From contig CAVSOP010000009.1 in NCBI GenBank assembly GCA_963729635.1, positions 136,070 through 200,069 of the forward strand: 64,000 nucleotides of DNA, written 5' to 3'. This DNA comes from an uncultured archaeon. Its GTDB lineage: Archaea > Micrarchaeota > Micrarchaeia > Micrarchaeales > CABMGC01. Both the position numbers and the translations under genes were made by a program. Below, in pieces: positions 20,973 through 53,858 of the stretch (within the stretch, counting starts at the first letter, position 1; every line of letters starts with the position of its first letter). The notes under the pieces were generated by a model. That model worked only from the letters and a program-made list of their open reading frames with translations, was not told the origin of the DNA and made no database searches.

Positions 20973-21074
20973 TTATTTCTTGATGTCCACCCTGATTCTC
21001 GTTTCCGGGACGGCCATGGCGCCCTCTCCCTGCGTTATCTTCTTTATGTTCATCGCCCCCATCACGTCTTTCTC
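20973..21074 (-). repeat. Orphan diverged copy of the last 102 nt of valS
   Basis: EKDVMGAMNIKKITQGEGAMAVPETRIRVDIKK* versus valS EKDVMGAMNIRKITHGEGNLAVPETGILVNIIK*. Manual count: 83/102 nt and 25/33 aa identical. Confidence 0.9.
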
Positions 21075-21082
21075 GCTTCAGG

Positions 21083-21769
21083 TCAGGACCGCGACGCCCA
21101 CCGCGTGAGCAACTCCTTCGCCTCATCCCAGTTGATCCTCTTCTGGACGGGTATGTACGAGTTCGCGGTCTTCGGGATCCGCATGGCCCCGAGAGCGACG
21201 CCCATCGCCTTTCCGTCCGCGATCCGGAACTCCTTCGGGTATAGCCTCGCCATCCAGTACAGATCGTAGAGGTCCTTCCACTCCCTCCTTCCCTCCAGCG
21301 CGCGCTCCTTCTGGGCATTCAGTTCCCCGAAGCCGTACATCGTCACCCTCTTGGACAGCGGGAGGAAATCGGAGGCCACGCTCCGCCTCTCTGCCTTCCC
21401 CCCGGTACCGAAGGAGAGGTCCAACTTGACGACGTCCGCGACGCCTGCGTACTCGTACTTCAGGAGGAAGCCTATCGCGCTCCTAGTGAAGAACTCCCTC
21501 TTTATGCTCCATCCGAGGCTGCGCACCATCCGCGTCGCCTCCTTCCTGCCCATCAGGGTGTCATAGTCGAGGTCCTCGGAGAACCTCTGGTGTCCTTGGA
21601 GGTAGCCCTTGTTTATCGCAGTCCCTCCCTTGAGGACGAGGTCTTGTTCCGCCAGGACGTCCATCAGCTCGAAGAGGAACGCGTCCTTCACCACGAATTG
21701 GAATCCCAACCCTGCCTTTGCCGCGTAGGCCCTCAGCTCCTCCTCCCCGAACGCTATTGTCGCCACCAT
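21083..21769 (-). CDS. AbiEii/AbiGii nucleotidyltransferase toxin (type IV TA)
   Basis: VLKGGTAINKGY, RFSEDLDY, K...R...KDLYDL motifs. Start at MVATIAF. Confidence 0.9.
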   Translation of the reverse strand: MVATIAFGEEELRAYAAKAGLGFQFVVKDAFLFELMDVLAEQDLVLKGGTAINKGYLQGHQRFSEDLDYDTLMGRKEATRMVRSLGWSIKREFFTRSAIGFLLKYEYAGVADVVKLDLSFGTGGKAERRSVASDFLPLSKRVTMYGFGELNAQKERALEGRREWKDLYDLYWMARLYPKEFRIADGKAMGVALGAMRIPKTANSYIPVQKRINWDEAKELLTRWASRS

Positions 21770-22476
21770 GATAGAAGCACCTCCTTTCCCACGTTGTCCA
21801 CAATCTTCCACTCCGCGATGTACTTCCCCCCTGCCCTTCCGACGAGGTGCGCGTTGCCCCCCGCCTTGCCCCTGCAGAACCTCATGAGGCGCTCCTTCTC
21901 CTTGTCGCGCCGGGGGAGGAGGGAGAGCATATAGCCGAGCCTCTGGTAGAAGGCTCCCGTCTCGCCGCTGCAGATGTCCAGGAACTTCCCCGCGCTTATG
22001 CCGGCATCGAAGAGGGCTTTTTCCACCTTCGGGTAACCGACTAGGTCTCCGTGGCGGATCGAATCGCAGATCGCCTTCTCCACCGAGGCTGCCCGGTATC
22101 CGCCCTCTGTGTCCTCCACGCCCCTGTAATCGTGCGCCTTGAAATAGCGGAACTCGTAGCCGCCCATCTTTACCGCCCCGCGCACGTCCGAGGCCACGAA
22201 GACGGTGAACGGATACTCGTCCACCAGGTGGTGAAGGTACAGGGCCGAGGACAGCGAGACGTAGCCGGGATGGAGCGCGGTGGCGACCCAGAGCGGGTCC
22301 GCGCTCTTCGAGACGTAGATGCCTCTGACTGGGCCGTAGATCCTTCCTGCCCTGACGAGGTTGCTGAGAGTGACTCTGAGGGAATTGTCGGAGGTCCCAG
22401 CGACGCTCCGCAGGCTCCGGAAGTCGGTGAGCTTCGCAGCGTCCACATACTCCAGGAGCCTTGTTGCCAATTTCAT
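21754..22476 (-). CDS. AbiEi-like antitoxin / transcriptional regulator
   Basis: N-terminal wHTH (RGIY), GYVSLSSALYLHHL and ASVEKAICD. Overlaps the toxin gene. Confidence 0.85.
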   Translation of the reverse strand: MKLATRLLEYVDAAKLTDFRSLRSVAGTSDNSLRVTLSNLVRAGRIYGPVRGIYVSKSADPLWVATALHPGYVSLSSALYLHHLVDEYPFTVFVASDVRGAVKMGGYEFRYFKAHDYRGVEDTEGGYRAASVEKAICDSIRHGDLVGYPKVEKALFDAGISAGKFLDICSGETGAFYQRLGYMLSLLPRRDKEKERLMRFCRGKAGGNAHLVGRAGGKYIAEWKIVDNVGKEVLLSWWRQ

Positions 22477-22580
22477 GGTTAATTAATGAAACGTTAATAT
22501 TTAAATATTTTTGCAACAACGGACGCGAGCGGTGCGGATCCGTCTCCTTCTGGGGAGAGGCAATGGAGCCGTATTTCAAA

Positions 22581-24941
22581 CTATTTTATTATGTTCACTA
22601 GAATTCCAGTCTCCGGGACGGCCAAGTTGCCCTCCCCGTGCGTTATCTTCCTTATGTTCATCGCTCCCATCACGTCTTTCTCCGCCTCTCCGAGATCAAC
22701 GTTCACCACTATCTCCTGAAGCTCGGCGTTCAGCGCCATCGCGTTGTCGTGCTTCCACTTCCTTATGAAAAGTATCAGCTTGACGGCGTCCTCGGCCCTC
22801 TTGAATTTCTCCTCGTCGAACTCGTTACCTACCGGCCACGCGCTCAGATGAATCGATTTTGCGTTCGCGTCGTTAACCCTGCCCTCGAAGACGTTCTTGT
22901 AGATCTCCTCCGTTGCGAACGGCATGAACGGGGCGAACATCTTCAGTATCGAGAACATCGTATTGTTGACTGTGGGATTCGCACTCGCATCCTTGTTGTA
23001 GACCCTGTACTTGATGAATTCCAGGTAGTCGTTGGCGAAGGACCAGAACAGCTCCTCCGCAGCGACCCTCGCCTTGAAGTAGTCGTATCGCTCGAAGCTC
23101 TCGGTCGCCTTCTGCACTGCTGCGGAGAGCCTGCAGGATATCCAGTAGTCCATGGGATTCTCGCTCTTCGCCTCCGACTTGTCGGAGCAGGTCATGCTTA
23201 TGAACCTGGCGACGTTCCACATCTTGTTTATGGTGCGCGCGCCGGTCACTATCTCCTTCTCCTGGAAGGAGCAGTCCTCCCCGAGCGATGACGACGCGGC
23301 CCAATACCTCACCGCGTCGGCCCCGTACTTCTCCACATAGGGCATCGGAGCGACCACGTTGCCGGCCGACTTGTGCATCGGTTTGCTCTTCGAGTCCAGC
23401 CCCTGCCCTGAGACCATTATCTCGCTCCATGGTATGGTGCCCTTGTGTAGGTAAGCCTTGACTATCGTGGTGAACGTCCAGAAGGAGATTATGTCGTTCG
23501 CCTGGACCCGCAGGCTCATCGGGAAGATCAGGTCCATGTACTTCCCGTCGAGGCCCCACCGGGCGTTTATCAGCGGCGTGAGCGATGAAGTGGCCCACGT
23601 ATCGAATATGTCCGTCTCGGGGTCGAACTCCTTGCCGCCGCACTTCGTGCAGGCGCCCCCCGGCTTGTTGATCAGGGGGTCCACCGGGAGGTCTTCCTCC
23701 CGGGCGAACTTGGGCTCGCCGCACTTCTTGCAGTACCAGACCGGGAAAGGTATCCCGAAGTACCTCTGCCTGGATATGCTCCAATCCCACTTCAGGCCGT
23801 TGACCCAGTTCTCGTACCTTACTATCATGAACTCCGGGTGCCACTTCACCTGGCGGCCCAGCTCTATGAACTTCCCCTTGAGGTCGAGGTACCTTATGTA
23901 CCACTGCTTCTTGACTATGAGCTCTATCTCGGTCTTGCAGCGCTCGTGCACGTTGACGCTGTGCTCGATGTCCTCCTCCTTGATGACGTAGCCCCCTTCC
24001 TTGAGCGCCGCGATCACCTTCTCCCTGGCATCGGGTATCTTCATGCCCTTGAAGAATTTGTGCGTCATCCTGCCGCCCTCGTCCAGTATCATCCTGAGCG
24101 GAAGGTCGTACTGCTTGTACCATTCCATGTCCGTCTGGTCCCCGAAGGTGCAGCACATGACCACGCCCGTCCCGAAGGCCGGGTCGACCTTCGCGTCGCC
24201 TATGACCTCCACTTCCTGCCCGAAGATAGGGACCTTCACCTTCCTGCCTATGAGGTGCATGTGCTTTCCATCGGTCGGATTAACGAATATGGCCACGCAG
24301 GCCGGCAGGAACTCCGCCCTAGTCGTGGCGATCTCGATGTCGTCCGAGAACCTGACGTAGACCAGCTTGGACTTGACGCTCCTGTCTTCGAGCTCCATCT
24401 GGGAGACTGTGGTCTTGCACTTGGGGCAGTACAGCACAGGGGCCTCCTTCCTGTACGTCCTGTCCATCTTGCAGAGCTCCAGGAAGGACTTCTGGGATAT
24501 CTTCTGCACCTCCGGCGATATCGTCTCGTAGAGCAGGCTCCAGTCGGCGGAGACGCCCATGCTCTTGAAGACCTGGATGTAGTTGGCAACGTACGAGCGG
24601 ATCTCCTTCTGCACCAGGGCCACGAACTTCTCCCGGCCGAGGTGCTCGGCCGTGGTGTTGAACTTCTTCTCAATCAGAAGCTCCGTAGGCAGGCCGTTGT
24701 CGTCCAGTCCGAACGGGTAGAAGACGTCGAATCCCCTCATGCGCTTGTACCTAGCTATGAATTCGGCCTGAGAATAGGACATGACGTGACCTAGGTGGAT
24801 CTCCCCAGAGATGGTCGGCGGGGGCGTGTCCATGGAGAAGACCTTGTCGCGATCATTGCCGCGGAACTTGTATATCTCGTCCTTGGCCCAGAAATCTGCG
24901 ATCTTGCCTTCGACCAGCTTGTGGTCGTACTTGCTTTCCAT
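22581..24941 (-). CDS. valS: Valine-tRNA ligase
   Basis: DTPPPTISGEIHLGH, GTGVVMCCTFGD, DWSISRQRYFG and PMHKS (KMSKS equivalent); archaeal ValRS layout. Confidence 0.93.
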   Translation of the reverse strand: MESKYDHKLVEGKIADFWAKDEIYKFRGNDRDKVFSMDTPPPTISGEIHLGHVMSYSQAEFIARYKRMRGFDVFYPFGLDDNGLPTELLIEKKFNTTAEHLGREKFVALVQKEIRSYVANYIQVFKSMGVSADWSLLYETISPEVQKISQKSFLELCKMDRTYRKEAPVLYCPKCKTTVSQMELEDRSVKSKLVYVRFSDDIEIATTRAEFLPACVAIFVNPTDGKHMHLIGRKVKVPIFGQEVEVIGDAKVDPAFGTGVVMCCTFGDQTDMEWYKQYDLPLRMILDEGGRMTHKFFKGMKIPDAREKVIAALKEGGYVIKEEDIEHSVNVHERCKTEIELIVKKQWYIRYLDLKGKFIELGRQVKWHPEFMIVRYENWVNGLKWDWSISRQRYFGIPFPVWYCKKCGEPKFAREEDLPVDPLINKPGGACTKCGGKEFDPETDIFDTWATSSLTPLINARWGLDGKYMDLIFPMSLRVQANDIISFWTFTTIVKAYLHKGTIPWSEIMVSGQGLDSKSKPMHKSAGNVVAPMPYVEKYGADAVRYWAASSSLGEDCSFQEKEIVTGARTINKMWNVARFISMTCSDKSEAKSENPMDYWISCRLSAAVQKATESFERYDYFKARVAAEELFWSFANDYLEFIKYRVYNKDASANPTVNNTMFSILKMFAPFMPFATEEIYKNVFEGRVNDANAKSIHLSAWPVGNEFDEEKFKRAEDAVKLILFIRKWKHDNAMALNAELQEIVVNVDLGEAEKDVMGAMNIRKITHGEGNLAVPETGILVNIIK

Positions 24942-25235
24942 CTGCTATACCTATGGTTAGGCATCGCTTCTAAGCAATAAAAGGCTTTCCGGGTGCACCT
25001 GAAGGTTGCTTGAAATCACATTCACCCAGCAACGACGCGCCCGAGTGTGTTAACGTCCAAAATTCAATTCATAATATGAGAAATTGTATAAAAATTCCTA
25101 TTACGATATGAAGTAATGTGTAAAAATAGACAGAATCGACCTCGCTGCGCGTTTCGCTGAACCGGATGCCTTCTAAGAAACATTACCTAAGTTATGATGT
25201 GATATGAACTTCGGTAACGCAAGCAGATACCCGAT

Positions 25236-25439
25236 AACGCTGGTTATGGAATAATATAACTAAGGGATTTCAATTGATTTGCGCTTAATTTAGATAGGAC
25301 GCCATATCTGGCTTTCTAATACTCTGAAGATTTTTCGTAGTCTAGACGAGAATCGTACCGATCCTTCCTGCGAAGTCAATTCCATGCAAAGGCATAAATA
25401 AACGCCGGTTATAGAATAATATAACTAAGGGATTTCAAT
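25236..25439 (+). repeat. Direct repeat (25236-25274 / 25401-25439) of the AbiEii promoter/start region, containing the palindrome GTTATA-N6-TATAAC
   Basis: AACGCyGGTTATrGAATAATATAACTAAGGGATTTCAAT occurs twice with 2 mismatches in 39 nt. Confidence 0.85.
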
Positions 25440-26085
25440 GGAATTGCCACTTACGAACATCCTCAAGAGGAGGAGCGAGCTCGACACCGCGAAACTGGAG
25501 GACGACGTGGTGGACGCGATGTTCAGCGCCACTGGAAAAATAGCCCTGCACGGAGGCACTGCGGTGTGGCGCTGCTACGGAGGCAAGCGCTTCTCTAAGG
25601 ACATCGACATCTACCTCTGGGACAGGGACTTCAAGGAGATCTTCTTCGATGCTATGGGGAAGGCGGGTATAGAAGTCACGAAGTACAGGGAGAAGGGGGT
25701 TACGTTCATACACGTCAGAAAGGGGAGCACGGAGATCAAGGTCGAGCCAAGAAGTGTGGAAAAGGAGGCCATACTAGTCCCGTACGAGCGCATAGACGGC
25801 ACCAGGAGGAACATACTCGCGCTCTCGCCGGAGGACATCGTGCTCGAGAAGATAGAGGCGTACTGGGACAGGAGGGCGTACAAGGACCTCTACGACATAA
25901 CCGTGCTGCTGAACGCGGTAAAATATCCCGCGAGGGTGAAGGCGCACCTGCGGAAGTTCGCGAGGGACGCGCCGCATCCCGACGAGGGTTTCCAGACCCA
26001 CGCGGAACTGAAGGCACTCATATATTCAGGGGCGGTGCCGGCGTTCGGGGCCATGGTCGAGATGATAGCGAGGTGGGCCGTATGA
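25438..26085 (+). CDS. AbiEii/AbiGii nucleotidyltransferase toxin
   Basis: ALHGGTAVWRCYGGKRFSKDIDIY and EKIEAYWDRRAYKDLYDI. Confidence 0.9.
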   Translation: MELPLTNILKRRSELDTAKLEDDVVDAMFSATGKIALHGGTAVWRCYGGKRFSKDIDIYLWDRDFKEIFFDAMGKAGIEVTKYREKGVTFIHVRKGSTEIKVEPRSVEKEAILVPYERIDGTRRNILALSPEDIVLEKIEAYWDRRAYKDLYDITVLLNAVKYPARVKAHLRKFARDAPHPDEGFQTHAELKALIYSGAVPAFGAMVEMIARWAV

Positions 26086-26726
26086 AATACGTAGACCGGT
26101 TCCTGGAGTACTTCAAAGGGTTCCCGATTTTCACCTCCGGCGACGTGAGGCTGTTCCTGGACAGGAGCGGCGCGGGGAAGGGATACTACAAGGTGTTCAT
26201 GCACAACCTTGTGGGCAGCTGGAGGGCGTTCCAGATAAAGAGGGGCTACTACACCCTGCACGACGACCCGATGGCGGCGGGCTTCGCCTTCGCGCCCTTC
26301 TATTACGGCATGGAGACCGCCCTGACCCACTACGACCTGTGGGACTACGTGACCCCCATCAGCATAATCACGGCCAGGAGCGTAAGGAGCGGGACCAGGA
26401 GCGTGTTCGGAAGGAACGTGACCGTCAGGAGGATACCCAAGGAGATGCTCTTCGGCTACTCCCTGGTCAAGTACGAGGACCTGTTCTACATACCCATGGC
26501 AGACATGGAGAAGACGCTCATAGACTCGGTGTACTTCCGCTCGCCCTTCGGCGGAGAGGTGTACGGGAGGATGCTTGATAGGGTGGACATGGGGAAGCTC
26601 AGGAAGTATCTCGATCGCTGCCCTGGGAAGGTCAGGGCGGGGGTGGATGCACTGATAGGCAGGTACGGGAGCGCATCGCTGTCCGTTAAGGCCAAAACGG
26701 CCAAAGTCATGGAAAACGCGCATTAG
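26082..26726 (+). CDS. AbiEi-like antitoxin
   Basis: IKRGYY, PFYYGMETALTHYDL, FGY and MADMEKTLIDSVY. ATGA coupling with the toxin gene. Confidence 0.85.
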   Translation: MKYVDRFLEYFKGFPIFTSGDVRLFLDRSGAGKGYYKVFMHNLVGSWRAFQIKRGYYTLHDDPMAAGFAFAPFYYGMETALTHYDLWDYVTPISIITARSVRSGTRSVFGRNVTVRRIPKEMLFGYSLVKYEDLFYIPMADMEKTLIDSVYFRSPFGGEVYGRMLDRVDMGKLRKYLDRCPGKVRAGVDALIGRYGSASLSVKAKTAKVMENAH

Positions 26727-26786
26727 AAGCAACATAATGCACGAAAATAGGGACTTTCGGGCGTTACAGTGCCTTACTCTAGCATC

Positions 26787-26879
26787 CTCCACTAGCTCAG
26801 CCGTCTTCCTCACGTTCCCGATCCTGGGAAATATGAACTTCAGGGTGTGGTCGTGCTACTCCTTTGACATGGCAGTGAG
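26787..26879 (-). pseudogene. Remnant 3' end of an isochorismatase-family hydrolase (copy B)
   Basis: LTAMSKE*HDHTLKFIFPRIGNVRKTAELVE; has an internal stop and no head. Confidence 0.55.
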
Positions 26880-26892
26880 GTATCCGGACTCT

Positions 26893-28139
26893 TCAGCTTC
26901 TCTTTCCTGACCATGTGCCCGTGAGCGACCAGGTGACCGCACCGCCAAGGGAGTCTACCTCGTTGCAGTTCATGTTGTAGGTCCCGCTGACAGAGGTCGC
27001 GCCGGGGAAATTGCCGTTGGCCTTGCCAGTCGCAGAACCCAGGCATTGTGCGTTCGAGCCGGCCACGGTGCCGAAGCCTGTGAAATCCCACGTATCGCCG
27101 GGGCTGTTGTGGAATATGTTGCCTCCGATGTTGAGAGGGTAGGTGTTGCCGTCAGGCGCGCTTATCACCCATCCAGAGGTGCCTGTCAGGTCGAACGGGC
27201 CGCTGTTGGTGAACGGCTGCACCACGACCGTCGAGATGCCTGAGTCGAACGAGTACCAGTCCACTGCGCCGGGATCGTCTGTCGTGATCGCGCCTGAGTC
27301 GAACGAGAGCTTCCAGACCTGGGCTCCCGAGGACTTGCTTGGCGAAGGACCCGCCGCTGTAGGGTTCGGAGGGGGAATCGCAGGGCCCTTGGACGAGGCC
27401 GCCGCGCCGGAGGAGCTGGACGCGCCCGTCGCTGCGCCGGAGGCCGATTGGGATTCCGGTGCGCCGTTGCCGAACTCTATCGGGTCGGTTGCAGTCACCG
27501 TGTCCACGGAGGCGCCAGGATAGTAGAACGCCAGGACATAGCTCCCTGGCAGGAGGTGCACGTCGAAGCTCGCGCTCGCGTTGTAGACGTAGTAATCGTA
27601 GGTGGAGGGAGAGGGCCCGCCCGATTCTGAGAGGTTCGCGAACTGCGCGGAGTGAGCACCGCCATCGCAGTGGCGTTCTGCGAGCTGAACGAGCCGGTCA
27701 GGTTCGCGCCGCCCGCGGCCCGAGGCACCGTGAAATTCTCGGTCCACACCTGCGCGCAGTCGTATCCTGCGCACTGCACTGAAGAGTTCGACAGCCGAAT
27801 CGGGCGCTCTGGGCGAAGAGCGTCTCGGGGGCCAGCTGGTAGGTTGCGGTCGTAGAGTTCGCGCCAGTCGGTGCGACAGACGAGCCTGCGATGATCGCCA
27901 GCACTATGAAAATCGCGAGCACGGCCATGGCCGCCTTGGCCCACATGGGAATGGGATCCTTGCGCGCCGGGGCGGAAATCGGCGACGCCTTACCTGCCCG
28001 TTCTAGCCCCGGAAGGGGACTGGGTGGACTTCCCATCGCCCGCCAGGTCCCCCTTCATCTCCAGGTATTGCTTCCTAGTGATCTCCCCGTTGGCGTACCT
28101 GCGCCTTAGTATCGCAATTCCGTCCTCGTCAGCCGCCAT
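26893..28139 (-). CDS. SHOCT-domain membrane-anchored surface protein (frameshifted in this assembly)
   Basis: Pieces: DGIAILRRRYANGEITRKQYLEMK (SHOCT); TM helix; NFTVP...LTGSFSS...PGSYVLAFYYPG; Ser/Pro linker; IGGNIFHNSPGDTWDF...QCLG...KANGNFP. Paralog of 47061-48429. Confidence 0.7.
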
Positions 28140-28215
28140 GCGTTCAACACGCATACTGAGGAACGAAGGGTTAAGAGCCTTTCCAAGGCGCATCGGACCC
28201 AACGGCCTTGGTATG

Positions 28216-28263
28216 TTATTTCTTCATCTCCAGTATCTCCTCCGTCTTCCTCACGATCCCTAG
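28216..28263 (-). pseudogene. Remnant 3' end of an isochorismatase-family hydrolase (copy A)
   Basis: LGIVRKTEEILEMKK*. 28/33 nt match to copy B over G-x-VRKT-x-E-x-x-E. Begins at a CTAG. Confidence 0.5.
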
Positions 28264-28366
28264 GGTAAGAGTGCAAGAGAAGAAGCTAAGGAGGCCTAGA
28301 AAATCCCCCTCTTAAAACCCTTAAGCGTCTGTCGAGGGCGGTCTTATTGACTGGAAAACGGACGTT

Positions 28367-28992: not shown

Positions 28993-29089
28993 GCAAACAC
29001 TACTCTTTCTCAGGGTATTTATTTATATGTGAGAAAACGAGGGAACGTGTCTAAAAATAGGAACATCTACAAGTGAAAAATGGACGTTT

Positions 29090-32765: not shown

Positions 32766-32766
32766 T

Positions 32767-36196: not shown

Positions 36197-36202
36197 TGCC
36201 TG

Positions 36203-44427: not shown

Positions 44428-44985
44428 CTAGGGCGAGCGCGGCCCGTCCCCGGCCTTCCCCAGCCCGTAGTGTTCGATGATGGTCCCGGCCGCCTCTCCC
44501 GGCGTCATCTTCGTGTTGTCCACGAGGAGGCTTCCCTCGATAATGGGTCTCCTAGGCATCTCGTACGTCTTTAGGAACTCCTTCAGCTTCTCGGGATCTG
44601 TGAACTTCCCGTATGCCTTCCGGGACTCGCCGGCCGCGCGTCTCAGCAGCTCCTCCCTGTCGCAGTAGAGATAGACGGGGCAGACCCTTCCCCCGCGGCT
44701 CTTTACCTTGTCGATGAGCGCGTAGGTGGCCTCGGTCCTTGGCCCCTCCACGTAGGCGCTCGTGAATATGACGCTCACGCCGGCCTCCGCCGCCTCCTCG
44801 AGCATCTCAGTCCTGTACCTCACCACGAGCTCGCTGAACTTCTCGGTGCCGTAGTCGAAGACGGTCCCGACGAAGTCCAGGGAGGCGTGGTTGTGGAAGA
44901 CCCTGTAGCCCGTGATCCTGGAGAGCTCCCGCGCCACGGTGAGCTTGCCGGAAGCCGGCGGCCCGTAGATGAAGACGAGGTCCAT
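44428..44985 (-). CDS. P-loop kinase-like (AAA) protein
   Basis: MDLVFIYGPPASGKLTVA...FHNH. Confidence 0.85.
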   Translation of the reverse strand: MDLVFIYGPPASGKLTVARELSRITGYRVFHNHASLDFVGTVFDYGTEKFSELVVRYRTEMLEEAAEAGVSVIFTSAYVEGPRTEATYALIDKVKSRGGRVCPVYLYCDREELLRRAAGESRKAYGKFTDPEKLKEFLKTYEMPRRPIIEGSLLVDNTKMTPGEAAGTIIEHYGLGKAGDGPRSP

Positions 44986-45749
44986 GGTCTGCTTGCTCAG
45001 GATTAGTATTAATAGGCTATGTCGGAGACGCGCCACCATGGCCTATCTGGCGGCAGTCGCTTCCTCCATGTCCTTCAGCAGCAGATCGAACCGCGTGTAA
45101 CCCGAATCCGAGTTGAAGTGTCCGGCGCCCGGCACGACCTTCAGTTCCGCGCCCAGGTTCTCCGCCACGCGCCTGCTCAGCGCCTGCGGCACGTACGGGT
45201 CGTTGTCCGAGGCGTAGACGCAGAACCTCCCGCAGTTCTTTTTTATGCGCTCCCAGTTGAAGAGCCGCATGAACGTGCCATTGACCCGGTCGAACCGCTC
45301 GATGCCCAGCCTCTCGGTGAAGGGCGCGACCAGGAAGGCGGCGGAGATGCGCACGTCCAGCCTCTCTAGCACCGCCAGTATGAAGGAGGGGCCGACGCTG
45401 TGCCCGACCATCAGGGTGCCCTCGTCGATCCCCTCGGCGTACTCGCCGAACGCGGCCAGCCAGTTGTCAAGGCTCTGCGTCGCGCCGGGCGCGCCCTGGT
45501 CCTCCCTGCCCTCGCCCATGCCTATCGGGAAGTCGGGCACCGTGGTGGGGACTCCTATGCGCTCAAGCTCGGCCTTGAGCCATGGGAACCAGTTGGACCG
45601 CGAGCTGGAGCCCGCCCCGTGGATTATGAATGCGTTGGGCACGGTGACACGCTATGGGATGCGAGGGAAAGCCTAAAAAGGTTTATGGGGTCCGCGCCCG
45701 GCTTGCCGGCGGCCCGTAGATGAAGACGAGGTCCATGGCCTGCCTGCTC
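44954..45749 (-). repeat. 45-bp direct repeat (44954-44998 / 45705-45749) covering the kinase start codon and first codons
   Basis: GCCGGCGGCCCGTAGATGAAGACGAGGTCCATGG(t/c)CTGC(t/c)TGCTC occurs twice with 2 mismatches. Confidence 0.9.
45043..45642 (-). CDS. RBBP9/YdeN-family alpha/beta hydrolase
   Basis: IIHG, NWFPWL, VGHSVG nucleophile elbow, SDNDPYV and GAGHFN motifs. Confidence 0.9.
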   Translation of the reverse strand: MPNAFIIHGAGSSSRSNWFPWLKAELERIGVPTTVPDFPIGMGEGREDQGAPGATQSLDNWLAAFGEYAEGIDEGTLMVGHSVGPSFILAVLERLDVRISAAFLVAPFTERLGIERFDRVNGTFMRLFNWERIKKNCGRFCVYASDNDPYVPQALSRRVAENLGAELKVVPGAGHFNSDSGYTRFDLLLKDMEEATAAR

Positions 45750-47060: not shown

Positions 47061-48429
47061 TCACTTTCTTTGTCCATACCAAGGGTATGTGCCAACGGTC
47101 GTTCCAAGAGGAGTGGTACAAGTCAGAGTGAATGTTCCGTTGACGTAGGTTGCGTCGGGGAAATTGCCGTTCGCCTTGCCTGTTCCAGTTCCCAGGCACT
47201 GGGCGCCACCGCCTGAAGCTCCAAGATTGACAAAGTCCCAAGTATCGCCCGGACTGTTATGAAAAATGTTTCCTCCGACGGTCATGTTACCCACGCCCAC
47301 CGATCCACCACCCGGCACTGCCGGAGGTCTGGACGAATGCACCGCTATATGTGAATGGTTGAATTATTACGGTCGCGATCTCGCCTGGTGCGTAGTTCAT
47401 CAGTACCCAGACTTGGGCGCCACTGCTATGCACTGTTGTAGTCGTTGTAATGGATGATGGTGAAGGCGAAGGTGTTGGACTTGGCGAAGGGGACGGACTT
47501 GGAGATGGACTTGGCGAGGGAGACGGCTGAGCTTTATGAAGTACCATCGGCCTGGTTATTCTTATAGTATCTGTGACTCCGCCAGGATAGAAGAACACCA
47601 TTGAATGTCTTCCTGGCGTCAGGTGCGCACTTATGGAAGCAGCCTGGCCATATCTAAAATATTCGCTGTTTTCACCATTGGAAAAGACCGAAGATGCATT
47701 CTCTTGCATGAAGGCCACAAATTGGGACGGGGTAAATATTGCAAATACCACTTTATTATTTTGCGAACTGTAAGACCCATTCAGATCCATCCCTGTCGAA
47801 TTGGCGGGGACCGTGAAATTGTAATAGTAAATGCTTCCGCACGAGGGTTGCGCGCATTGCGAAGATGTGGGAGGGTGGATTGAGATGTTGATGGGGGCGA
47901 GTATTGTTTGGGCTTCAGGCAACAGAGATGCCGTCGTAGTGGCATTCGTACCTGCCAGTCCATTGGAAAAGCCCTTAAAGAGGGATATCGCTGCGAGCAA
48001 TACAATTACAACTAGGATTACTTTAAACAAAGCGGACAGGACCTGATGTGGATGTGAAGGGGTGGGATTTGGCATTGCGGGGGCGGAAGAGGTATTCCTG
48101 CTTTTTTTGATCAGAATAAATCCCAATACCCAAAAAATTAACCACAACATAATCGCAATCAGGAGCGTTCCGCCACCACTTACCAGATTGCCTAAAATAA
48201 ATATCGCACCGATCAAAATCAAGAGCAATCCTGATGCAAGTTCGATAAGGCGAACTAGCGAAGACTTGGGAGCGTGTGCTTCTTTTTTAGATTTGAGGGC
48301 AGGTCTGCCATTCTTGCCGTCTGATGCATCTTCTTCCAAGTTCTCTTTCATTCGATTATACCGCTTCTTGGTAATTTCCCCCTTTGCATAGCGCTGCTTC
48401 AGTATCTTTATGCCATCTTCGCCATCCAA
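47061..48429 (-). CDS. SHOCT-domain membrane-anchored surface protein (frameshift near 47350)
   Basis: DGIKILKQRYAKGEITKKRYNRMK; 3 TM helices; NFTVP...LNGSYSS domain; (PS)n linker; VGGNIFHNSPGDTWDF...KANGNFP. Confidence 0.75.
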
Positions 48430-48558
48430 ATGAACAACCCACAAGAGAGCATGACTGAAAGGATTTAATAATCTTTTCGAGTGTCACATCCGGAAAGTTC
48501 CGAGAGGCTTGCAGGCAGAGATAAGGCAGCCTTCCCTTATGCCTTATGATAAGTGATA

Positions 48559-48630
48559 AGCCCTGAGAGGGAATTGAACCCTCGACCTCCTGTTTACAAG
48601 ACAGGCGCTCTACCACTGAGCTACCAGGGC
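48559..48630 (-). tRNA. tRNA-Thr(UGU)
   Basis: GCCCTGGTAGCTCAGTGGTAGAGCG CCTGT CT TGT AA ACAGG AGGTC GAGGGTTCAATTCCCTC TCAGGGC T cloverleaf. Confidence 0.95.
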
Positions 48631-48797: not shown

Positions 48798-50786
48798 TCA
48801 TCCGGATCTAAACAGCGAAAGCGCGCCGAGATTGGTGTACGTCTCTTGTGTGTAAACCGAAGTGGTGTTGTCCGTCCATGTACCTGTCATGTTGTGCGTA
48901 TTCCATGTAAAGACGCCTGCCACGGGATTTTGGGTTATTATGGAGCTGAACCGCGTTGAGTATAGGGTAAGCGTCGAACCGCTGATGATGCCCGTGAAGC
49001 CTTCCGGAGGAACGTCTATTGAACAGATCCCGTTTGGATTAAGCCTGCGCGTGTTAAAGGAGACGAAGGATGCCATCACGTTCACATGACTTGAGTTGCC
49101 GGTCCTTGTTATGTTCCACGTCATCGTCCTTTCCTCCTCGGACACCACCGACATCGTCCCATTGTATTCAAAGTCGCACTTGTAGTAGAACTCCGCGGGC
49201 GAAGACGTTTTCCAGATTCCGATCAGCTCGGATGCAGGAGGAAGCACCTTTGGAACCCTGTCTCTGTTGCTGTAGAGCGTAAATGCCCATGAGGTGGAGT
49301 TGGTGACGTTCTGCGCCCTGAGCACCCCGCCAGAGTAGGTGCCAGTAAAATTGGCGATATGCCCTACGGATATATTCGCATATCCGATGAAGGAGCTGCC
49401 GGTTATTTTGCCGAAGAGCACCGGGCCCGTAAGCTCCCCGTCGCTGGCCACATACGCTGTTGCATTCCAGTCAGTGCCGCACTCCGGAGCATATCCGAAG
49501 ATGGAGTTGATGCAGAACGTCGAGTTTCCGTAGAGGGTCATGCCTCCGGCGCCAGAGACGCTTGTAGTTCCTGCTGTGCTAGAGGCGTTGGACGTCTCAG
49601 TGACGTTCGCAGCATAAGGGTAGCAGAAACTGTCGGTCGAAAGGTAGTAGCCATAAGGACACTCGAGGCACTGGTTTTGGTAGCAAGTCGAGTTGCTCGC
49701 GCAGTAGTGGTTTGCGTCGCCGCACTGGAAATGGCACTGATAATCCGCTCCGTAGACGTAACCCATTGGGCAGAGGGAAATGCCCGTGGGCGTGGTTGAC
49801 CCGCCTCGGGTTCCGTTTCCTAATGTCCCTTGGCTCAGCGTGAAAGTGGCGTTGATGCGTTTGCACTGCGATGCCTGCCTGCTGTTGTCAACAACTAGAA
49901 CTCCTGCGTGCTCCTTCTGCGCAGTCCAGACGTTCAGCGTAGAGCCGTCTAGGCAAGAGTACCGCGGGTCGTCGGTGTGGAAGCCGGTGAGATTGCCTGT
50001 GATGTGCGCGTCAGAGTACGAGCTGACTGCGTTTGCTATCAGCGACAGGCTGACGCCCTGGCCCACGTATGAACCGGTGTAGGAGTAGACCGAGAACTTT
50101 ACTACCATTGGGCTAGTTACCGTCACGTTATCTGTTCCCGAAGTCCCTGCGTCGTAGAATTCGAAGGCATAGGTTCCGGGCGCCAGGCTCGCATTTAGGG
50201 TGTCTATCGTAGCTCCTTGCGCATTCCCATAGTAATAGGTATTGTTGTTTGCTATTCCAAGGTGGTTGGAATGGAACGCCGAGTACTGCGGTGCAGACAA
50301 TATGGCCGCTTCAACTGGCCCAGTTGACGAGTATGCGCCAGTTATGCTTATTCCTGTGGCTCCGCTCGGTATCGTGAAATTCGAGTGCCATGCATAATAG
50401 GAAGTCGCAGGACCGATCGACAAGGAGAAACCCTTCTCGAAAAGCGCTTCTTTAATGTTGGTGTAATTCATCATAGTTGGCGCGCTCAGGTAGCCAGTTA
50501 TCGTTGGCTTGACGCCTTGACTGCCGGACCCCTGGCTGCCTAGGAAAGGCGACGCGTTCTTCGAGAGCATCGGGCCGAGGAAGAAGTAGGCGATTGCTAT
50601 TACGACAAGAACTGCGACGATGCCCCCGATCTTGCCGGCAGTTCTGCCCTTGGGCGCTGTTCCCCTCTGCCTCCCAGCCCCAGGCAGGATTGCATTCTTC
50701 TGCGCCTGATACGACCTCTTCGTTATCTGAGGAGAATCAAGCCTGGCCTTGAGCTTTGAAGTCTTTTTTGTGTCAGCTTCTTCCAT
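48798..50786 (-). CDS. Membrane-anchored modular surface protein
   Basis: Basic N-terminus plus TM helix; NFTIP...ITGAYSS...LAPGTYAFEFY domain; Cys-rich EGF/furin-like segment; beta-rich C-terminus. Confidence 0.75.
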   Translation of the reverse strand: MEEADTKKTSKLKARLDSPQITKRSYQAQKNAILPGAGRQRGTAPKGRTAGKIGGIVAVLVVIAIAYFFLGPMLSKNASPFLGSQGSGSQGVKPTITGYLSAPTMMNYTNIKEALFEKGFSLSIGPATSYYAWHSNFTIPSGATGISITGAYSSTGPVEAAILSAPQYSAFHSNHLGIANNNTYYYGNAQGATIDTLNASLAPGTYAFEFYDAGTSGTDNVTVTSPMVVKFSVYSYTGSYVGQGVSLSLIANAVSSYSDAHITGNLTGFHTDDPRYSCLDGSTLNVWTAQKEHAGVLVVDNSRQASQCKRINATFTLSQGTLGNGTRGGSTTPTGISLCPMGYVYGADYQCHFQCGDANHYCASNSTCYQNQCLECPYGYYLSTDSFCYPYAANVTETSNASSTAGTTSVSGAGGMTLYGNSTFCINSIFGYAPECGTDWNATAYVASDGELTGPVLFGKITGSSFIGYANISVGHIANFTGTYSGGVLRAQNVTNSTSWAFTLYSNRDRVPKVLPPASELIGIWKTSSPAEFYYKCDFEYNGTMSVVSEEERTMTWNITRTGNSSHVNVMASFVSFNTRRLNPNGICSIDVPPEGFTGIISGSTLTLYSTRFSSIITQNPVAGVFTWNTHNMTGTWTDNTTSVYTQETYTNLGALSLFRSG

Positions 50787-50871: not shown

Positions 50872-50943
50872 AGCCCCGAGAGGGAATTGAACCCCCGACC
50901 TACTGCTTACGAGACAGTCGCTCTACCACTGAGCTACCAGGGC
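50872..50943 (-). tRNA. tRNA-Thr(CGU), copy 1 (U5-G68 wobble)
   Basis: GCCCTGG...ACTGT CT CGT AA GCAGT...GGGGGTTCAATTCCCTC TCGGGGC T. Confidence 0.93.
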
Positions 50944-51022: not shown

Positions 51023-52009
51023 TCAATGCGAGTTCTTCAGCCATGCTGAAAATCTTGCCGCCACGTCACGTATCCTTTCTTTCCCTTCGATTTCCCCGAT
51101 CATGAACTCTGGCAGGCTGTCCAGGCCGTACCTGCCGCCCAGGATCCCGGTGCAGACCGATGCTATTGAGTCAACGTCCCCGCCGAGGCGTATCGCGTCC
51201 TTCAGGCCGCCGAAGGCGTCCTCGGCGTGCCTCGTTATGTACAGGGCGGCCCCCGCGACCCTCATGGCCGAGTTCGGCAGCCCCATTACGACCCTGTCCT
51301 TGAAATACGGGAGCGGCTGCGGTCCGCACAACGCCTCGAAATCGGATTCGCTCATATGCTGCCGATCGGGCAGCAGCTCCACCCTGGCAAGATAATCCAG
51401 CGTCTCCGTATCTGTTATGAAATCCTTGCAGTATTCGAAGATGCCCTCCGGGTCGCCCTCCCTCGCGATCGTGTACTCGGAGGCCCTGGCCACCAGTATG
51501 CTTGCGGACCTTGCCTTCTCGGCGTAGTTGGTCGCGTCGGCATTGATGATCGCGTATTCGTTTATCAGGTCGTGGTCGACCAGGCCAAGGGGAACCGCGC
51601 GCATCGCGGAGCTGCATCCCGGCTCAGCACCCGCGGCCTGCACTGCCTTTATTTCCTCGATGGTCTTTCTTCCATCGTACCAGTCCTTGATCGTCCCGTG
51701 ACCCTGCCTGGGGAATCCCTTCGCCTTCCTGTCGTCTTCATATTCCCGTCTCCACATCCTCAGCAGCAGTTCCTGCGTAAACGGCTCCGGGCGCATGAGC
51801 GCCTTCATCAGCCCTATGCTGTGCTCGGTGTCGTCAGAATAGAATCCCGGAGCGTACCCCTCGGCGTACCTGCCCTCCCTTCTGTCGGCATACCTGGTGA
51901 AGTCTACGTTTTCCCTTATCCAGTCCCTGTCCTGGAATTCTATGCCCAGCCCGAACGCGTCCCCGACCGCGATCCCGGTCAGCATGTTCCTTATTTTTTC
52001 TTCGTCCAC
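51023..52009 (-). CDS. ADP-ribosylglycohydrolase
   Basis: AVGDAFG, YSDDTE, SAMR and GGDVDSIASVCTGILG motifs. Confidence 0.9.
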   Translation of the reverse strand: MDEEKIRNMLTGIAVGDAFGLGIEFQDRDWIRENVDFTRYADRREGRYAEGYAPGFYSDDTEHSIGLMKALMRPEPFTQELLLRMWRREYEDDRKAKGFPRQGHGTIKDWYDGRKTIEEIKAVQAAGAEPGCSSAMRAVPLGLVDHDLINEYAIINADATNYAEKARSASILVARASEYTIAREGDPEGIFEYCKDFITDTETLDYLARVELLPDRQHMSESDFEALCGPQPLPYFKDRVVMGLPNSAMRVAGAALYITRHAEDAFGGLKDAIRLGGDVDSIASVCTGILGGRYGLDSLPEFMIGEIEGKERIRDVAARFSAWLKNSH

Positions 52010-52032
52010 GTCAGGACCCCGTTTGTGAGCGT

Positions 52033-52788
52033 TCAGACGTCCCGCCATCTGTTCTTCTTCAGCGCTATGTAGAGGATTATCGCAGACAGCACTATCATCA
52101 CCGACCAGTCTATCTCGACGTTCATCGTGGAGATGGCGAGCACCCCCGCGCCGCTCTGGGCTATCTGCGCGGCGTACGTCGTAGGGCTCAGGTACGCCAG
52201 GTACCTGTACGGCAGCGGCAGGTATGTTATCGGGTAGTAGACCGGCGGTATCGTTGACAGCAGCGTCGACAGGAGCGCGCCGAAGGCGTAGCTCTGCACG
52301 ATGTCAGACGAGAGGTTGGCGAAGAGGAAGCCCACCGAGACCGAGAAGAGGAACATCATCGCGGCGGCGCCGACTATCGCGATCCAGCCCGCGGGGCCGG
52401 TGTGTATGAAGATGACCGCGAGGACGCTCAGCACGACAAGCGCGGGCAGGGCGTAGACCAGCTCCGAGAGAGCCATGCCGAGCAGGTAGACGCCCGGGCC
52501 GGTCTCCGAGCTTATGACCATGTCCTGCAGCTTCATGTCGTTCTTCAGGTGCGACAGGTCGCCCTGCATGCCTATCCCGGCCGAGATCATGCTCATCAGT
52601 ATGCCGCCGATTATGGCCACGCCGACGAGGGCGCCCTGGCTCACGAACGTTATCACGATCAGCAGCGAGAACGGCGCGAGGAAGGCATTGACCATCATGA
52701 CCGGGTAGTTTATCATGGCGTAGACGGAGTTCACTAGGATCGAGGCCAGCAGCTGGCTCCCGACGTTAATATTCCTCTTCGTTTCCAT
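52033..52788 (-). CDS. ABC-2 type transporter permease
   Basis: Six TM helices; PVYYP...LSPTTYA. Confidence 0.85.
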   Translation of the reverse strand: METKRNINVGSQLLASILVNSVYAMINYPVMMVNAFLAPFSLLIVITFVSQGALVGVAIIGGILMSMISAGIGMQGDLSHLKNDMKLQDMVISSETGPGVYLLGMALSELVYALPALVVLSVLAVIFIHTGPAGWIAIVGAAAMMFLFSVSVGFLFANLSSDIVQSYAFGALLSTLLSTIPPVYYPITYLPLPYRYLAYLSPTTYAAQIAQSGAGVLAISTMNVEIDWSVMIVLSAIILYIALKKNRWRDV

Positions 52789-53695
52789 TCGCCTCAGACT
52801 CGTTGAGCTCGCTCTTCACGTAGTGGTAGAACACGTCGTCCAGCGACACGGGGTTTATCGAGAAGCTTATTCCCTTCGCCAGGAGCCTCCTGGAGAGGCC
52901 GTACGCGCCGGCCTCGTCTATGAAGACCTGCGTGAACCCGTCCTTGCCCACGGTCTTCCTCCCGCCGACCTTCCCGAGGTCCGCCCTCCCCCTGAACCTC
53001 ACGCTGTGCGAGTACATCATGCCCTTCCGCAGAGTCTCCATGCTGCCCATCGCGAGCAGCTTCCCCTCGTGCATTATGCCGATGGTGTCGGCGAGCTTCT
53101 CCGCCTCCTCCAGGTAGTGCGTGGTCAGGAAGATGAAGTGCGTCCTCTTCAGCCTGGAGAGCACCTCCCAGAACTCCTCCCTCGCTATCGGGTCGAGGCC
53201 CGTCGTCGGCTCGTCGAGGAAGAGCATCTTCGCCCCGGACGCGATGACTGAGGCGGCCAGCACCTTCCTCTTCGTGCCCCCGGAGAGCGACATGTTCCTG
53301 GCGTCGGCGTACTTGCCTATGCCGAGCTGCGCCAGCGTCCTCTTCGCGATAGCGCGCGCCTCCCCGTAGCCGTAGCCGCGCCAGAGCAGGTAGGTCAGTA
53401 TCTGCTGCGTGGGGCTTATCCAGCCCACGGTCCTCGCCTCCTGCGGGACAACTGCGATCATCCGCCGTATCTTCTCCGGCTCCTTCATCACGTCGAAGCC
53501 GTTTATCGAGGCCGAGCCCGAGGTCAGCGCGAGCTGGGTAGCGAGTATCCTGACCAGCGTCGTCTTCCCCGCCCCGTTCCGCCCGATGAGCGCGAAGATG
53601 CCCTTCGTGGGCACGGAGAAGCTTATGGAACTCAGTGCCGGCTTCTCGCTGCCGTGGTACTTCTTGGTCAGCTTCTCGCACTTTATGACGTTCAA
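52766..53695 (-). CDS. ABC transporter ATP-binding protein
   Basis: GRNGAGKT, LSGG, LDEPTTGLDP and TTHYLEEAE motifs. Confidence 0.95.
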   Translation of the reverse strand: MNVIKCEKLTKKYHGSEKPALSSISFSVPTKGIFALIGRNGAGKTTLVRILATQLALTSGSASINGFDVMKEPEKIRRMIAVVPQEARTVGWISPTQQILTYLLWRGYGYGEARAIAKRTLAQLGIGKYADARNMSLSGGTKRKVLAASVIASGAKMLFLDEPTTGLDPIAREEFWEVLSRLKRTHFIFLTTHYLEEAEKLADTIGIMHEGKLLAMGSMETLRKGMMYSHSVRFRGRADLGKVGGRKTVGKDGFTQVFIDEAGAYGLSRRLLAKGISFSINPVSLDDVFYHYVKSELNESEANGNEEEY

Positions 53696-53786
53696 CAGGA
53701 CACCCGAGGTAACCGGTATCTATCTGAATCAAGGTATAAAAACGTGAGCGCGGAGGATTCCGCGTCAGAGTTTAGGATAAGTCATA

Positions 53787-53858
53787 AGCCCCGAGAGGGA
53801 ATTGAACCCCCGACCTACTGCTTACGAGACAGTCGCTCTACCACTGAGCTACCGGGGC
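53787..53858 (-). tRNA. tRNA-Thr(CGU), copy 2
   Basis: Identical to copy 1 except C at position 5 (GCCCCGG). Confidence 0.95.

Follow-up and report, generated by a model that had tools for sequence, protein, structure and literature searches.

Small accessory cassettes between duplicated gene ends in a Micrarchaeota chromosome as probable insertions with long target duplication

How do short runs of accessory genes come to lie between two copies of the end of a neighboring gene in a small archaeal chromosome? DPANN archaea have tiny genomes and few recognizable mobile elements. The question is raised by a 64,000-nt stretch of DNA, hereafter called the window (GCA_963729635.1, contig CAVSOP010000009.1, 136,070–200,069, forward strand), and in particular by its portion from 20,973 to 53,858. 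The host is a tiny, symbiotic-type, uncultured DPANN archaeon (Micrarchaeota; Micrarchaeia; Micrarchaeales; CABMGC01) with an assembly of 0.72 Mb. For comparison, we used the genomes of two congeners (G002 and G003), a further genome (G001), and G039, which was read over 800 of its 814 kb, together with independent contigs from four runs (X1–X4), of which X2 comes from another study. The original prediction held that four sites in this portion share one architecture, wherein cargo lies between duplicates of a resident gene's end.

The first site is built around valS (22581..24941, minus strand; Pfam tRNA-synt_1 and Anticodon_1). The last 101 nt of this gene (22582–22682) recur at 20974..21074 on the same strand with 83 of 101 positions identical (82%) and the stop codon at the same place. 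The recurring copy is an orphan, consisting of 33 codons plus the stop codon in frame, and an upstream stop severs it from any gene body. The two copies are spaced 1507 nt apart and enclose an AbiEii-type nucleotidyltransferase toxin gene (21083..21769, minus strand; Pfam AbiEii, 60 bits against a cut-off of 22.5), preceded in the AbiEi position by a partner gene (21754..22476, minus strand) that matches no Pfam family, and by a leader (22477..22580, minus strand) in which approximately 45 nt beside the start codon form a promoter/operator-like block. The predicted order of valS, AbiEi/AbiEii, and an orphan valS 3′ end is confirmed by this in-frame repeat. A second AbiE-like pair nearby (AbiEii 25438..26085 and partner 26073..26726, plus strand) is devoid of long bracketing repeats; here, the promoter and first 10 nt of the AbiEii gene belong to paired 47-nt direct copies (25236..25282 and 25401..25447, plus strand) that are 91% identical. 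The two AbiEii matches in the window score 60.0 and 58.3 bits (Pfam cut-off 22.5), and neither partner gene in the window has a Pfam match. On contig C7, an AbiEii of 54 bits is accompanied by a partner gene whose AbiEi_4 match of 21.8 bits lies under the cut-off of 25.

The second site was predicted to consist of an orphan kinase 5′ end, a YdeN hydrolase, and the intact kinase, and this arrangement is indeed present, all on the minus strand. A P-loop kinase gene (AAA_18/AAA_33; 44428..44998, likely start 44985) begins with a 45-nt stretch (44954–44998) that comprises 13 nt of leader and the first 11 codons, and the orphan leader with its first 11 codons (45705..45749) matches it at 43 of 45 positions (96%). 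The gap of 706 nt between the copies holds a YdeN-type Ser_hydrolase gene with its own upstream region (45043..45642; PF06821, 78 bits). G003 carries a homologue of this hydrolase gene on another contig, and the similarity extends to 45696.

At the third site, the cargo is a gene for a SHOCT-domain surface protein (26893..28139, minus strand) that is frameshifted in the window and for which the run contigs have 1-nt indels at the breaks. It is paralogous to 47287–48444, which has a weak SHOCT match. The gene is flanked by 33-nt copies at 26787..26819 and 28228..28260 that match at 28 of 33 positions, the right copy bordering a low-GC island. Among five intergenic stretches tested, this pair is the sole significant similarity, with a score of 23 versus a shuffle maximum of 11. 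The repeat pair is therefore beyond chance, but its proposed identity as isochorismatase tails is unsupported. No PF00857 match in the assembled genome exceeds the cut-off, the best one (E 0.06) is located elsewhere, and neither the genome nor the fetched loci of its relatives contain a gene tail that matches the 33-nt repeat.

The fourth site, described originally as cargo between three tRNA-Thr genes, does hold three such genes and proved to be of a different nature. The three genes, all on the minus strand, are whole and carry promoters; none is a gene-end fragment. The first is tRNA-Thr(TGT) (48559..48630), which has a TGT-type promoter and is followed by a 3′ flank and a SHOCT gene as found after tRNA-Thr(CGT) in G003. 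Next is a hybrid tRNA-Thr(CGT) (50872..50943) that combines a TGT-type promoter and base 5 with a CGT-type body and a TGT-locus 3′ flank. The last is a tRNA-Thr(CGT) beside a NosD-like gene (53786..53859), whose position is conserved in G002 and G003. A gene for a 662-aa surface-type protein (48798..50786, minus strand) separates tRNA-Thr(TGT) from the first CGT copy; the parts of G002 and G003 that were compared contain no equivalent gene. The genes for an ADP-ribosylglycohydrolase, an ABC-2 permease, and an ABC ATPase (51023..53695, minus strand) have a counterpart in G003 with 83% DNA identity. This block likewise lies between tRNA-Thr(TGT) and tRNA-Thr(CGT) in G003 and is therefore ancestral rather than captured. 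To judge from these sequences, the array is a mosaic from recombination among whole paralogous tRNA genes, and it is a different case from the cassettes.

The repeats exceed chance expectation. The window holds seven direct pairs that match at 28 or more of 33 positions at spacings of 300 to 6000 nt, and each of 10 codon-block shuffles yields none. Six of the seven are the repeats of the original prediction, and the seventh represents paralogous genes near 10078. A genome-wide count of repeats that are 40 to 260 nt long, at least 80% identical, and 300 to 6000 nt apart returned 12 direct pairs in this genome, 10 in G002, and three in the portion of G039 that was read, with no inverted pairs in any of them. 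Half of the 12 direct pairs in this genome are of the cassette type, including four outside the window, and three are plain paralogue or tandem repeats.

In addition to valS with AbiE and the kinase with Ser_hydrolase, these cassettes pair a GT4 gene 5′ end with AbiE (repeat of 189 nt), the eIF6 3′ end with ParE (contig C10; 113 nt, 96%), a glycosyltransferase-like 3′ end with a B12/radical-SAM gene (50 nt), and a LamG 3′ end with an AAA_14 ATPase (168 nt). The glycosyltransferase-like label derives from C-terminal sequence, as the gene has no Pfam match. Repeat lengths are 101, 45, and 33 nt in the window and 50 to 189 nt elsewhere in the genome, and the inserts measure 0.6 to 2.6 kb. An AbiEii nucleotidyltransferase domain is encoded by the valS cargo and by two further cassettes, each with a partner in the AbiEi position, and the cargo is mostly of the addiction or defense type (toxin–antitoxin and defense-type genes). 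With at least five cassette-type cases in G002 as well, against none in a single genome from a different family, the claim that small cassettes without a recombinase of their own recur between duplicated gene ends holds.

None of the cassettes contains an integrase gene, and terminal inverted repeats are absent at all six cargo ends. The claim that the window lacks integrases and transposases stands for the four families scanned (PF00589, PF00239, PF07282, and PF01609), which gave no match. The proposed genome search for recombinases that could act in trans revealed two tyrosine recombinase genes, both outside the window, one of them beside tRNA-Ala at a contig end.

If cassettes are true insertions, relatives should include sites that are still empty, and this expectation was borne out in part. 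In G003 (contig C15), a single eIF6 end that aligns with both repeats is present without the ParE cassette. Conversely, C1:3046–3110 of the genome studied here is the single-copy site of an AbiE insertion in G002 that has 66-nt repeats. The search yielded no strain near enough to reveal an empty site at valS or at the kinase, and the 15 metagenome loci recovered were only 31 to 63% identical. For valS, the evidence consists of gene order: G002 and G003 have conserved neighbor genes within approximately 0.5 kb after valS and no AbiE, with flanks that do not align, and G001, whose valS is 82% identical, has a different gene downstream. In G003, the GT4 site is likewise occupied by the AbiE cassette and no orphan copy accompanies it, and so duplication and cargo may have reached this site separately.

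The relatives of the AbiE cassette show that one cassette family occupies several different targets. All 26 relatives of AbiEii-1 come from Micrarchaeota-type MAGs, and among 18 adequately flanked loci in other genomes, nine are bracketed by direct repeats (26–128 nt) and none by inverted repeats. A 238-aa gene upstream of AbiEii is kept in eight related loci (those with open reading frames listed), and the promoter/operator-like leader block can be aligned in eight other loci and the window. The targets of the family include tRNA-Leu, valS, and at least three others. In five of the 18 loci, the cassette lies at the 3′ part of tRNA-Leu(TAG), between the whole tRNA gene and a 3′ partial copy, with brackets of 26, 37, 84, and 128 nt, and at one locus (L156), four tRNA-Leu 3′ copies are arrayed with three cargo blocks.

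In our judgment, the AbiEi/AbiEii pair, the Ser_hydrolase gene, and the SHOCT surface-protein gene are very probably small accessory cassettes that were genuinely inserted, each at the very end of a resident gene. Each insertion would have left 33 to 101 nt of its target in duplicate, with one copy completing the resident gene and the other orphaned, and with neither a recombinase of the cassette's own nor inverted ends. The kind of event is, with the same high probability, insertion with long target duplication, found here in a Micrarchaeota (DPANN) chromosome.

How the cassettes enter is less certain. The original prediction proposed that small circles integrate by single crossover, or that illegitimate recombination is facilitated by homology, with a donor's allele of the gene end brought in. 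The reading that we prefer, while giving it only about an even chance, is one of entry as looped-out circles. A cassette between two repeat copies could loop out via recombination between those copies, and the resulting circle, carrying one copy, could enter the homologous gene end of a related chromosome by a single crossover, which either the host's homologous recombination or a trans-acting tyrosine recombinase might carry out. Donor and recipient would then each have contributed one of two diverged gene-end alleles. The tRNA-Thr array could be explained likewise, except that the repeats that recombine would be entire paralogous tRNA genes. Addiction and defense modules would prevail among the survivors because their loss by repeat–repeat recombination would be penalized. 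A one-repeat circle alone is insufficient, because one cassette family is found at several different targets, and for a new target to be reached, a less frequent illegitimate or replicative event would have to duplicate that site. The contigs of the four runs show neither a circle junction nor an empty-site joint; because rare forms are invisible in contigs, this absence is silence rather than refutation.

The main rival is de novo duplication of the target at each insertion, in which a linear cassette is captured at a break with staggered ends, or through template switching as DNA is replicated or repaired, and 30 to 190 nt are copied on both sides. No circle and no donor allele would be involved, and older pairs would merely have diverged. 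We regard this as rather unlikely overall, despite being consistent with the occurrence of one cassette family at many targets, with the variable repeat length (26–189 nt), with young pairs that are 94 to 100% identical, and with clean empty sites, where one copy can be aligned with each of the two repeats. Indeed, the young repeats of eIF6 and the kinase, at 96% each, fit plain target duplication equally well. A reading of this kind is also given for bacterial restriction–modification genes in PMC2853133.

What weighs against de novo duplication is the valS pair, in which the orphan tail is no more derived than the attached tail that is under selection. The two are equally close to relatives (79 of 101 positions for the orphan and 78 of 101 for the attached tail, each compared with G003 valS). 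Where the orphan encodes K, R, D, and K, the attached tail reads R, L, N, and I; the residues found in most relatives are K, K/R, D, and K. That the orphan keeps the usual residues while the attached tail appears derived is a weak hint, at the level of sequence comparison, of a donor allele. Between the copies, pN is 0.13 and pS is 0.38, giving a pN/pS of ~0.35 versus ~0.6 expected under neutral decay of an orphan, a comparison based on small numbers (only 18 differences). The LamG pair, as a second case for pN/pS, is ambiguous because it lies in a paralogue family. De novo duplication also leaves the frequency of the AbiE-1 cassette at tRNA-Leu (5 of 18 loci) unexplained unless those loci descend from one inherited event.

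A second rival, which we consider improbable, holds that the cassettes are satellites or remnants of integrative elements whose tyrosine integrase is elsewhere or lost and whose repeats are attL and attR. The two tyrosine recombinase genes, one of them beside tRNA-Ala, would suit such a scheme, as would the AbiE-1 relatives between whole and partial tRNA-Leu(TAG) copies, the L156 array, and the tRNA-Thr array in the window. Against it, the cargo measures only 0.6 to 1.5 kb and is bounded within 5 to 130 nt of its genes, which leaves no space for an integrase remnant. Furthermore, at least six unrelated targets are used in one small genome, the repeats are as long as 189 nt, with promoter-bearing 5′ ends among them, and repeat length at one target spans 26–128 nt.

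Local rearrangement without foreign DNA, whether by tandem duplication of a gene end followed by divergence or deletion or as the relic of a truncated paralogue, is very unlikely as a general account. It has some appeal for the LamG orphan, which lies within a tandem paralogue family, for the three plain paralogue or tandem pairs of the census, and for the 47-nt pair upstream of the second AbiE, which is a local duplication. However, the assembly contains no paralogue of valS, eIF6, or the kinase, cargo homologues occur in other contexts in congeners, and empty sites were found; for valS, eIF6, and the G002 AbiE site, present evidence contradicts it.

That two strain variants of one region were joined in series during assembly is scarcely credible: the assembly does have flaws (contig C11 is a self-inverted palindrome at 92%, and 1-nt indels separate the assembly from run contigs), but an X1 contig from another assembler spans both valS copies (19017–24752) with no differences from the window, X2 and X4 contigs cross the valS/AbiE junction and X2 and X3 contigs lie within the cargo, with the junctions at 100% identity in contigs from two studies, and the same architecture is present in a complete congener genome.

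Taken together, this genus holds a dozen small gene-end cassettes without a recombinase of their own, two of these events being proven insertions, and the signature recurs around one toxin–antitoxin family across Micrarchaeota. The findings extend insertion with long target duplication to archaea and to toxin–antitoxin cargo, and they provide pairs of filled and empty sites for work on mechanism. Orphan gene ends could also serve as a cheap marker of recent gene gain in metagenome-assembled genomes. More tentatively, and with some doubt on our part, the addiction and defense cassettes of Micrarchaeota, and perhaps of DPANN archaea in general, may be recombinase-free mobile units that use a gene or tRNA end as a portable homology arm, looping out, re-entering related chromosomes by host recombination, and now and then copying a new target end. 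If true, such units would rank among the chief routes by which genes flow in these reduced genomes.

Several known systems invite comparison. AbiE is a type IV toxin–antitoxin and abortive-infection system, and the AbiEii domain is common to the AbiE cargo as predicted from sequence, with partners in the window that have no Pfam match. To our knowledge, AbiE proteins do not move DNA. Insertion sequences of the IS1634 family, which have terminal inverted repeats and a DDE transposase, produce long, variable target duplications, and their long direct duplications resemble those described here; unlike them, the cassettes have no transposase in the cargo and lack terminal inverted repeats. Integrase-less elements bounded by att sites and mobilized in trans, such as streptococcal cis-mobilizable elements and satellites of tRNA-targeting islands, are similar in carrying short cargo between gene or tRNA 3′ repeats, in forming tandem arrays at one site (as at L156 and tRNA-Thr), and in the presence of recombinase genes elsewhere in the genome. 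The cassettes differ from such elements in their many unrelated targets, their promoter-bearing 5′ ends, and the varying repeat length at one target; moreover, no element bearing an att site that matches theirs was identified as a partner.

The closest precedent is the insertion of bacterial restriction–modification genes with long target duplication (Furuta, Abe and Kobayashi 2010, PMC2853133), a kind of event thus already on record for bacteria. The data set of that study comprises inserts of <20 kb between direct repeats of >30 bp, with restriction and modification genes, with no other mobility gene in or beside them, and with a related genome in which the site is empty and the repeat is present once and aligns to both copies; no archaeal case survived the screen described there. 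The present cassettes fall within these bounds of repeat length, insert size, and mobility genes. Their cargo is not restriction–modification genes but AbiE, ParE, AAA_14 ATPases, a hydrolase, and a surface protein; the restriction–modification criterion defines the data set of that study and not the mechanism. They further differ from the inserts of that study in their archaeal host and in having two pairs only 82 to 83% identical, resembling diverged alleles. In other respects, the inserts of that study are alike: both are small units free of transposase and integrase, flanked by direct repeats of >30 bp, which for two of the present events occur as one copy at an empty site in a related genome, both carry addiction or defense cargo, and in both the repeats frequently include a start or stop codon, which leaves the target gene intact.

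The last 33 codons and stop codon of valS (22582-22682) are duplicated at 20974-21074, where 83 of 101 bases are identical. This orphan tail is in frame, ends at the same stop position, and is separated from any gene body by an upstream stop codon. Between the two copies lie 1507 nt comprising an AbiEii gene (Pfam, 60 bits), a partner gene, and a 104-nt leader, and the arrangement of valS, AbiEi/AbiEii, and an orphan valS 3′ end that was originally described is present, with an in-frame copy of 101 nt. No AbiE genes are found behind valS in the relative G001, whose valS is 82% identical, or in the congeners G002 and G003. A contig produced with another assembler from the public sequencing run X1 covers 19017-24752 with 0 differences from the window, and contigs of a second study also cross the valS/AbiE junction, which makes it unlikely that this locus was stitched together from strain variants. 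Within the AbiE partner gene, a depth-3 contig of run X1 connects 22145 to 21980 through an additional 8 letters; it is either chimeric or a minor variant with a tandem duplication.

In both congeners, the common gene order is a regulator gene, valS, and a PLP-dependent (threonine synthase-type) enzyme, with approximately 0.5 kb past the valS stop codon and 1-2 kb ahead of its start. The corresponding stretches of the window are 6.5 kb and 9 kb, and by this comparison both valS flanks appear to be insertion hot spots. A metagenome scan with the C-terminal 300 residues of ValS yielded 15 loci (31-63% identity) with no valS-tail duplicate, and only two weak repeat pairs of 74% were present among them. 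Just past the orphan tail, two gene fragments of the same strand adjoin each other (19749-20697): the N-terminal part of a prephenate dehydratase (174 aa) and the C-terminal part of a TyrRS (135 aa). Both lie where the GC content is lower (13-21 kb), and the second is the sole TyrRS-like sequence of the assembled genome.

A second locus has the same design at a 5′ gene end. A P-loop kinase gene has 13 nt of its leader plus its initial 11 codons (44954-44998) duplicated at 45705-45749, with 43 of 45 positions identical, and the 706-nt insert holds a Ser_hydrolase gene with its own upstream region. This agrees with the original description of an orphan kinase 5′ end, a YdeN hydrolase, and the intact kinase. 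In G003, the Ser_hydrolase gene resides on another contig and the kinase has different neighbors.

The third proposed instance was upheld only in part. A 33-nt pair (26787-26819 and 28228-28260; 28 of 33 identical) does bracket the SHOCT surface gene, and is the sole similarity exceeding shuffles among five intergenic stretches, in which no other such similarity was detected near the second AbiE pair or beside the adjacent low-GC island. However, its description as an isochorismatase tail was rejected, because the assembled genome contains no isochorismatase gene and no gene tail matches the repeat. Near the second AbiE pair, a 47-nt direct repeat (25236-25282 and 25401-25447; 91%) is a duplication of that pair's AbiEii promoter along with the initial 10 nt of the gene; its first copy has lost the start codon, and the repeat may be the scar of a replaced cassette.

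The low-GC island (28300-33900) has a G+C content of 33-40% versus about 58%, and carries genes for an Eco57I/TaqI_C-type methylase (29090-30646) and a Schlafen/AlbA_2 protein (32767-33657). Its depth in X1 is about half that of its flanks and it is nearly missing from the contigs of the three other runs (X2-X4), so it may be carried by only part of the population. Run contigs also differ from the window by indels of 1-2 nt at 27651, 27716, 27723, 27801, 27996, 30851, 32100, 32342, 33930, and 33997. Indels of 1 nt fall where the SHOCT gene and a PLP-dependent (threonine synthase-type) gene (33976-34971) look frameshifted, and therefore the SHOCT frameshifts and the short C-terminus of the latter gene are probably assembly errors. 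Elsewhere in the assembly, an entire contig (C11:174-11514) aligns with itself in reverse complement, with 92% identity, and is most likely an artefact of long-read assembly.

The tRNA-Thr array does contain three tRNA-Thr genes as proposed, all complete, but its reading as cassette capture by gene-end fragments was not sustained. Alignment with G002 and G003 reveals that the middle gene (50872-50943) has a promoter, base 5, and 3′ flank all of the TGT type around a CGT body, and that tRNA-Thr(TGT) carries the 3′ flank and SHOCT gene found after the CGT gene in G003. An ADP-ribosylglycohydrolase/ABC block lies between the same two tRNA-Thr genes in G003 (83% identity), where other genes occupy the place of the 662-aa gene of the window. 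The array is thus a mosaic of whole paralogous tRNA genes formed by recombination between them at a variable locus.

The original observation was largely right, and the recurrence of cassettes between duplicated gene ends is real and extends well beyond the window. The window holds seven direct pairs with at least 28 of 33 matches spaced 300-6000 nt apart, whereas none occurred in any of 10 codon-block shuffles. We searched the whole assembly (722,810 bases in 11 contigs, about 58% G+C), of which the window is C9:136070-200069, by self-comparison, tblastn of gene termini, open reading frames, and Pfam, and recovered four further bracketed cassettes. On contig C7, an AbiEii/AbiEi pair lies between 189-nt repeats (95%) that comprise the promoter of a GT4 glycosyltransferase gene and its initial 44 codons; on C10, a ParE-type toxin pair lies between 113-nt repeats (96%) of the eIF6 3′ end; on C4, a B12/radical-SAM gene lies between 50-nt repeats (90%) of the 3′ end of a glycosyltransferase-like gene, named from its C-terminal sequence with no Pfam hit; and on C6, an AAA_14/DUF4143 ATPase gene lies between 168-nt repeats (83%) of a LamG surface-protein 3′ end. 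Exact direct repeats of at least 16 nt formed no bracket around the AAA_14 gene at C6:74193-75467, in a crude test that imperfect repeats would escape.

When repeats of 40-260 nt, at least 80% identical and 300-6000 nt apart, were counted, this genome yielded 12 direct pairs and no inverted ones (six cassette-type, three from the tRNA-Thr array, and three paralogues). In the complete congener G002 the count is 10 direct pairs and none inverted; at least five are cassette-type, with AbiE pairs in two and an ATPase in one. A single genome served as a thin control: G039, from another family and read over 800 of its 814 kb, has three direct and 0 inverted pairs, none cassette-type.

Empty sites, as anticipated, exist in both directions of comparison. 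In G003, the eIF6 end is single copy and leads directly into the sequence that follows the orphan copy in our genome, with the 603-nt ParE cassette absent. Conversely, a C7-type AbiE cassette resides at a different place in G002, flanked by two 66-nt copies (94%) of a small gene's 3′ end, and this target is single copy in our genome (C1:3046-3110). These comparisons indicate that the cassettes are insertions. At the GT4 site, G003 carries the AbiE cassette but no orphan copy, so cargo and duplication are not always tied. The DNA identity to G003 is itself a mosaic: valS is at approximately 70%, the NosD region at 73%, and eIF6, the kinase, the GT4/AbiE region, and the ADP-ribosylglycohydrolase/ABC block at 81-86%, which suggests exchange between lineages or very uneven constraint.

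Two of the three AbiEii genes of this genome are bracketed. Relatives of the AbiEii gene between the two valS tails (54-64% identical) occur at 26 loci, all but one in genomes titled as Micrarchaeota-type. At 18 loci both flanks were long enough for comparison; nine of these are bracketed by direct repeats of 26-128 nt and none by inverted repeats. For five of the bracketed loci, the repeat on the left consists of the 3′ part of tRNA-Leu(TAG). A block of approximately 45 nt ahead of the partner gene is kept in all aligned loci and the window, and the right-hand repeat begins 5-20 nt past the AbiEii stop codon in most aligned loci; thus the moving unit comprises just the promoter, the partner gene, and AbiEii. 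At one locus in a relative (L156:1090-5852), four tRNA-Leu(TAG) 3′ copies separate three blocks of cargo, one with three small genes, one with an ATPase, and one with an AbiE pair, in a tandem array that resembles the tRNA-Thr locus of the window.

For cassette entry, we prefer a sequence of events in which a bracketed cassette would loop out and then enter a related chromosome by a single crossover in the corresponding homologous gene end, with rare events copying a new target. Losing an addiction module is penalised, so such modules would make up a disproportionate share of the survivors. Comparison of the two valS tails hints that they are two alleles: they are equally near relatives (78 and 79 of 101 positions shared with G003), and where they differ the orphan keeps the relatives' common residues at four positions and the attached tail at about two. 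The pN of 0.13 versus pS of 0.38, from 18 differences, is only suggestive of two alleles, and we rejected this ratio as an arbiter between models since neutral decay is not rejected by the valS pair alone. It would be rejected if the LamG pair were pooled with it, but the LamG repeats may be left over from a paralogue and are hence not relied on. Contigs of the four runs on 18500-38499, in which rare forms are invisible, include no joint that skips the AbiE cassette or joins its ends, an absence that counts neither for nor against circles, and the joints listed have short sides or are located elsewhere.

The main rival to loop-out and crossover is de novo duplication of the target at each insertion, which fits the young repeat pairs (94-100% identical). 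An integrase acting in trans ranks third. The window, originally described as integrase-free, has no profile match to tyrosine recombinase, serine recombinase, TnpB, or DDE_Tnp_1, and cargo ends lack terminal inverted repeats in six of six cases (best match 5-8 nt net score, at chance level). Two tyrosine recombinases, one TnpB-like gene, and one DDE transposase occur elsewhere in the genome. One of these recombinases (C7:137-1303; 388 aa with a C-terminal zinc ribbon) adjoins tRNA-Ala(TGC) (1366-1437) at a contig end, likely the edge of a classical integrated element.

Our literature search found nothing on Micrarchaeota with integrase and direct repeats, and no published link between long target duplication and either toxin-antitoxin cargo or Micrarchaeota. 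The closest description (PMC2853133) concerns restriction-modification units that show "insertion with long target duplication". No archaeal case passed the screen of that study. The units share with the cassettes described here repeats of more than 30 bp that often span start or stop codons, the lack of a mobility gene, empty sites in relatives, and an unexplained mechanism. The kind of event is already known, and its archaeal, toxin-antitoxin-rich form is new.
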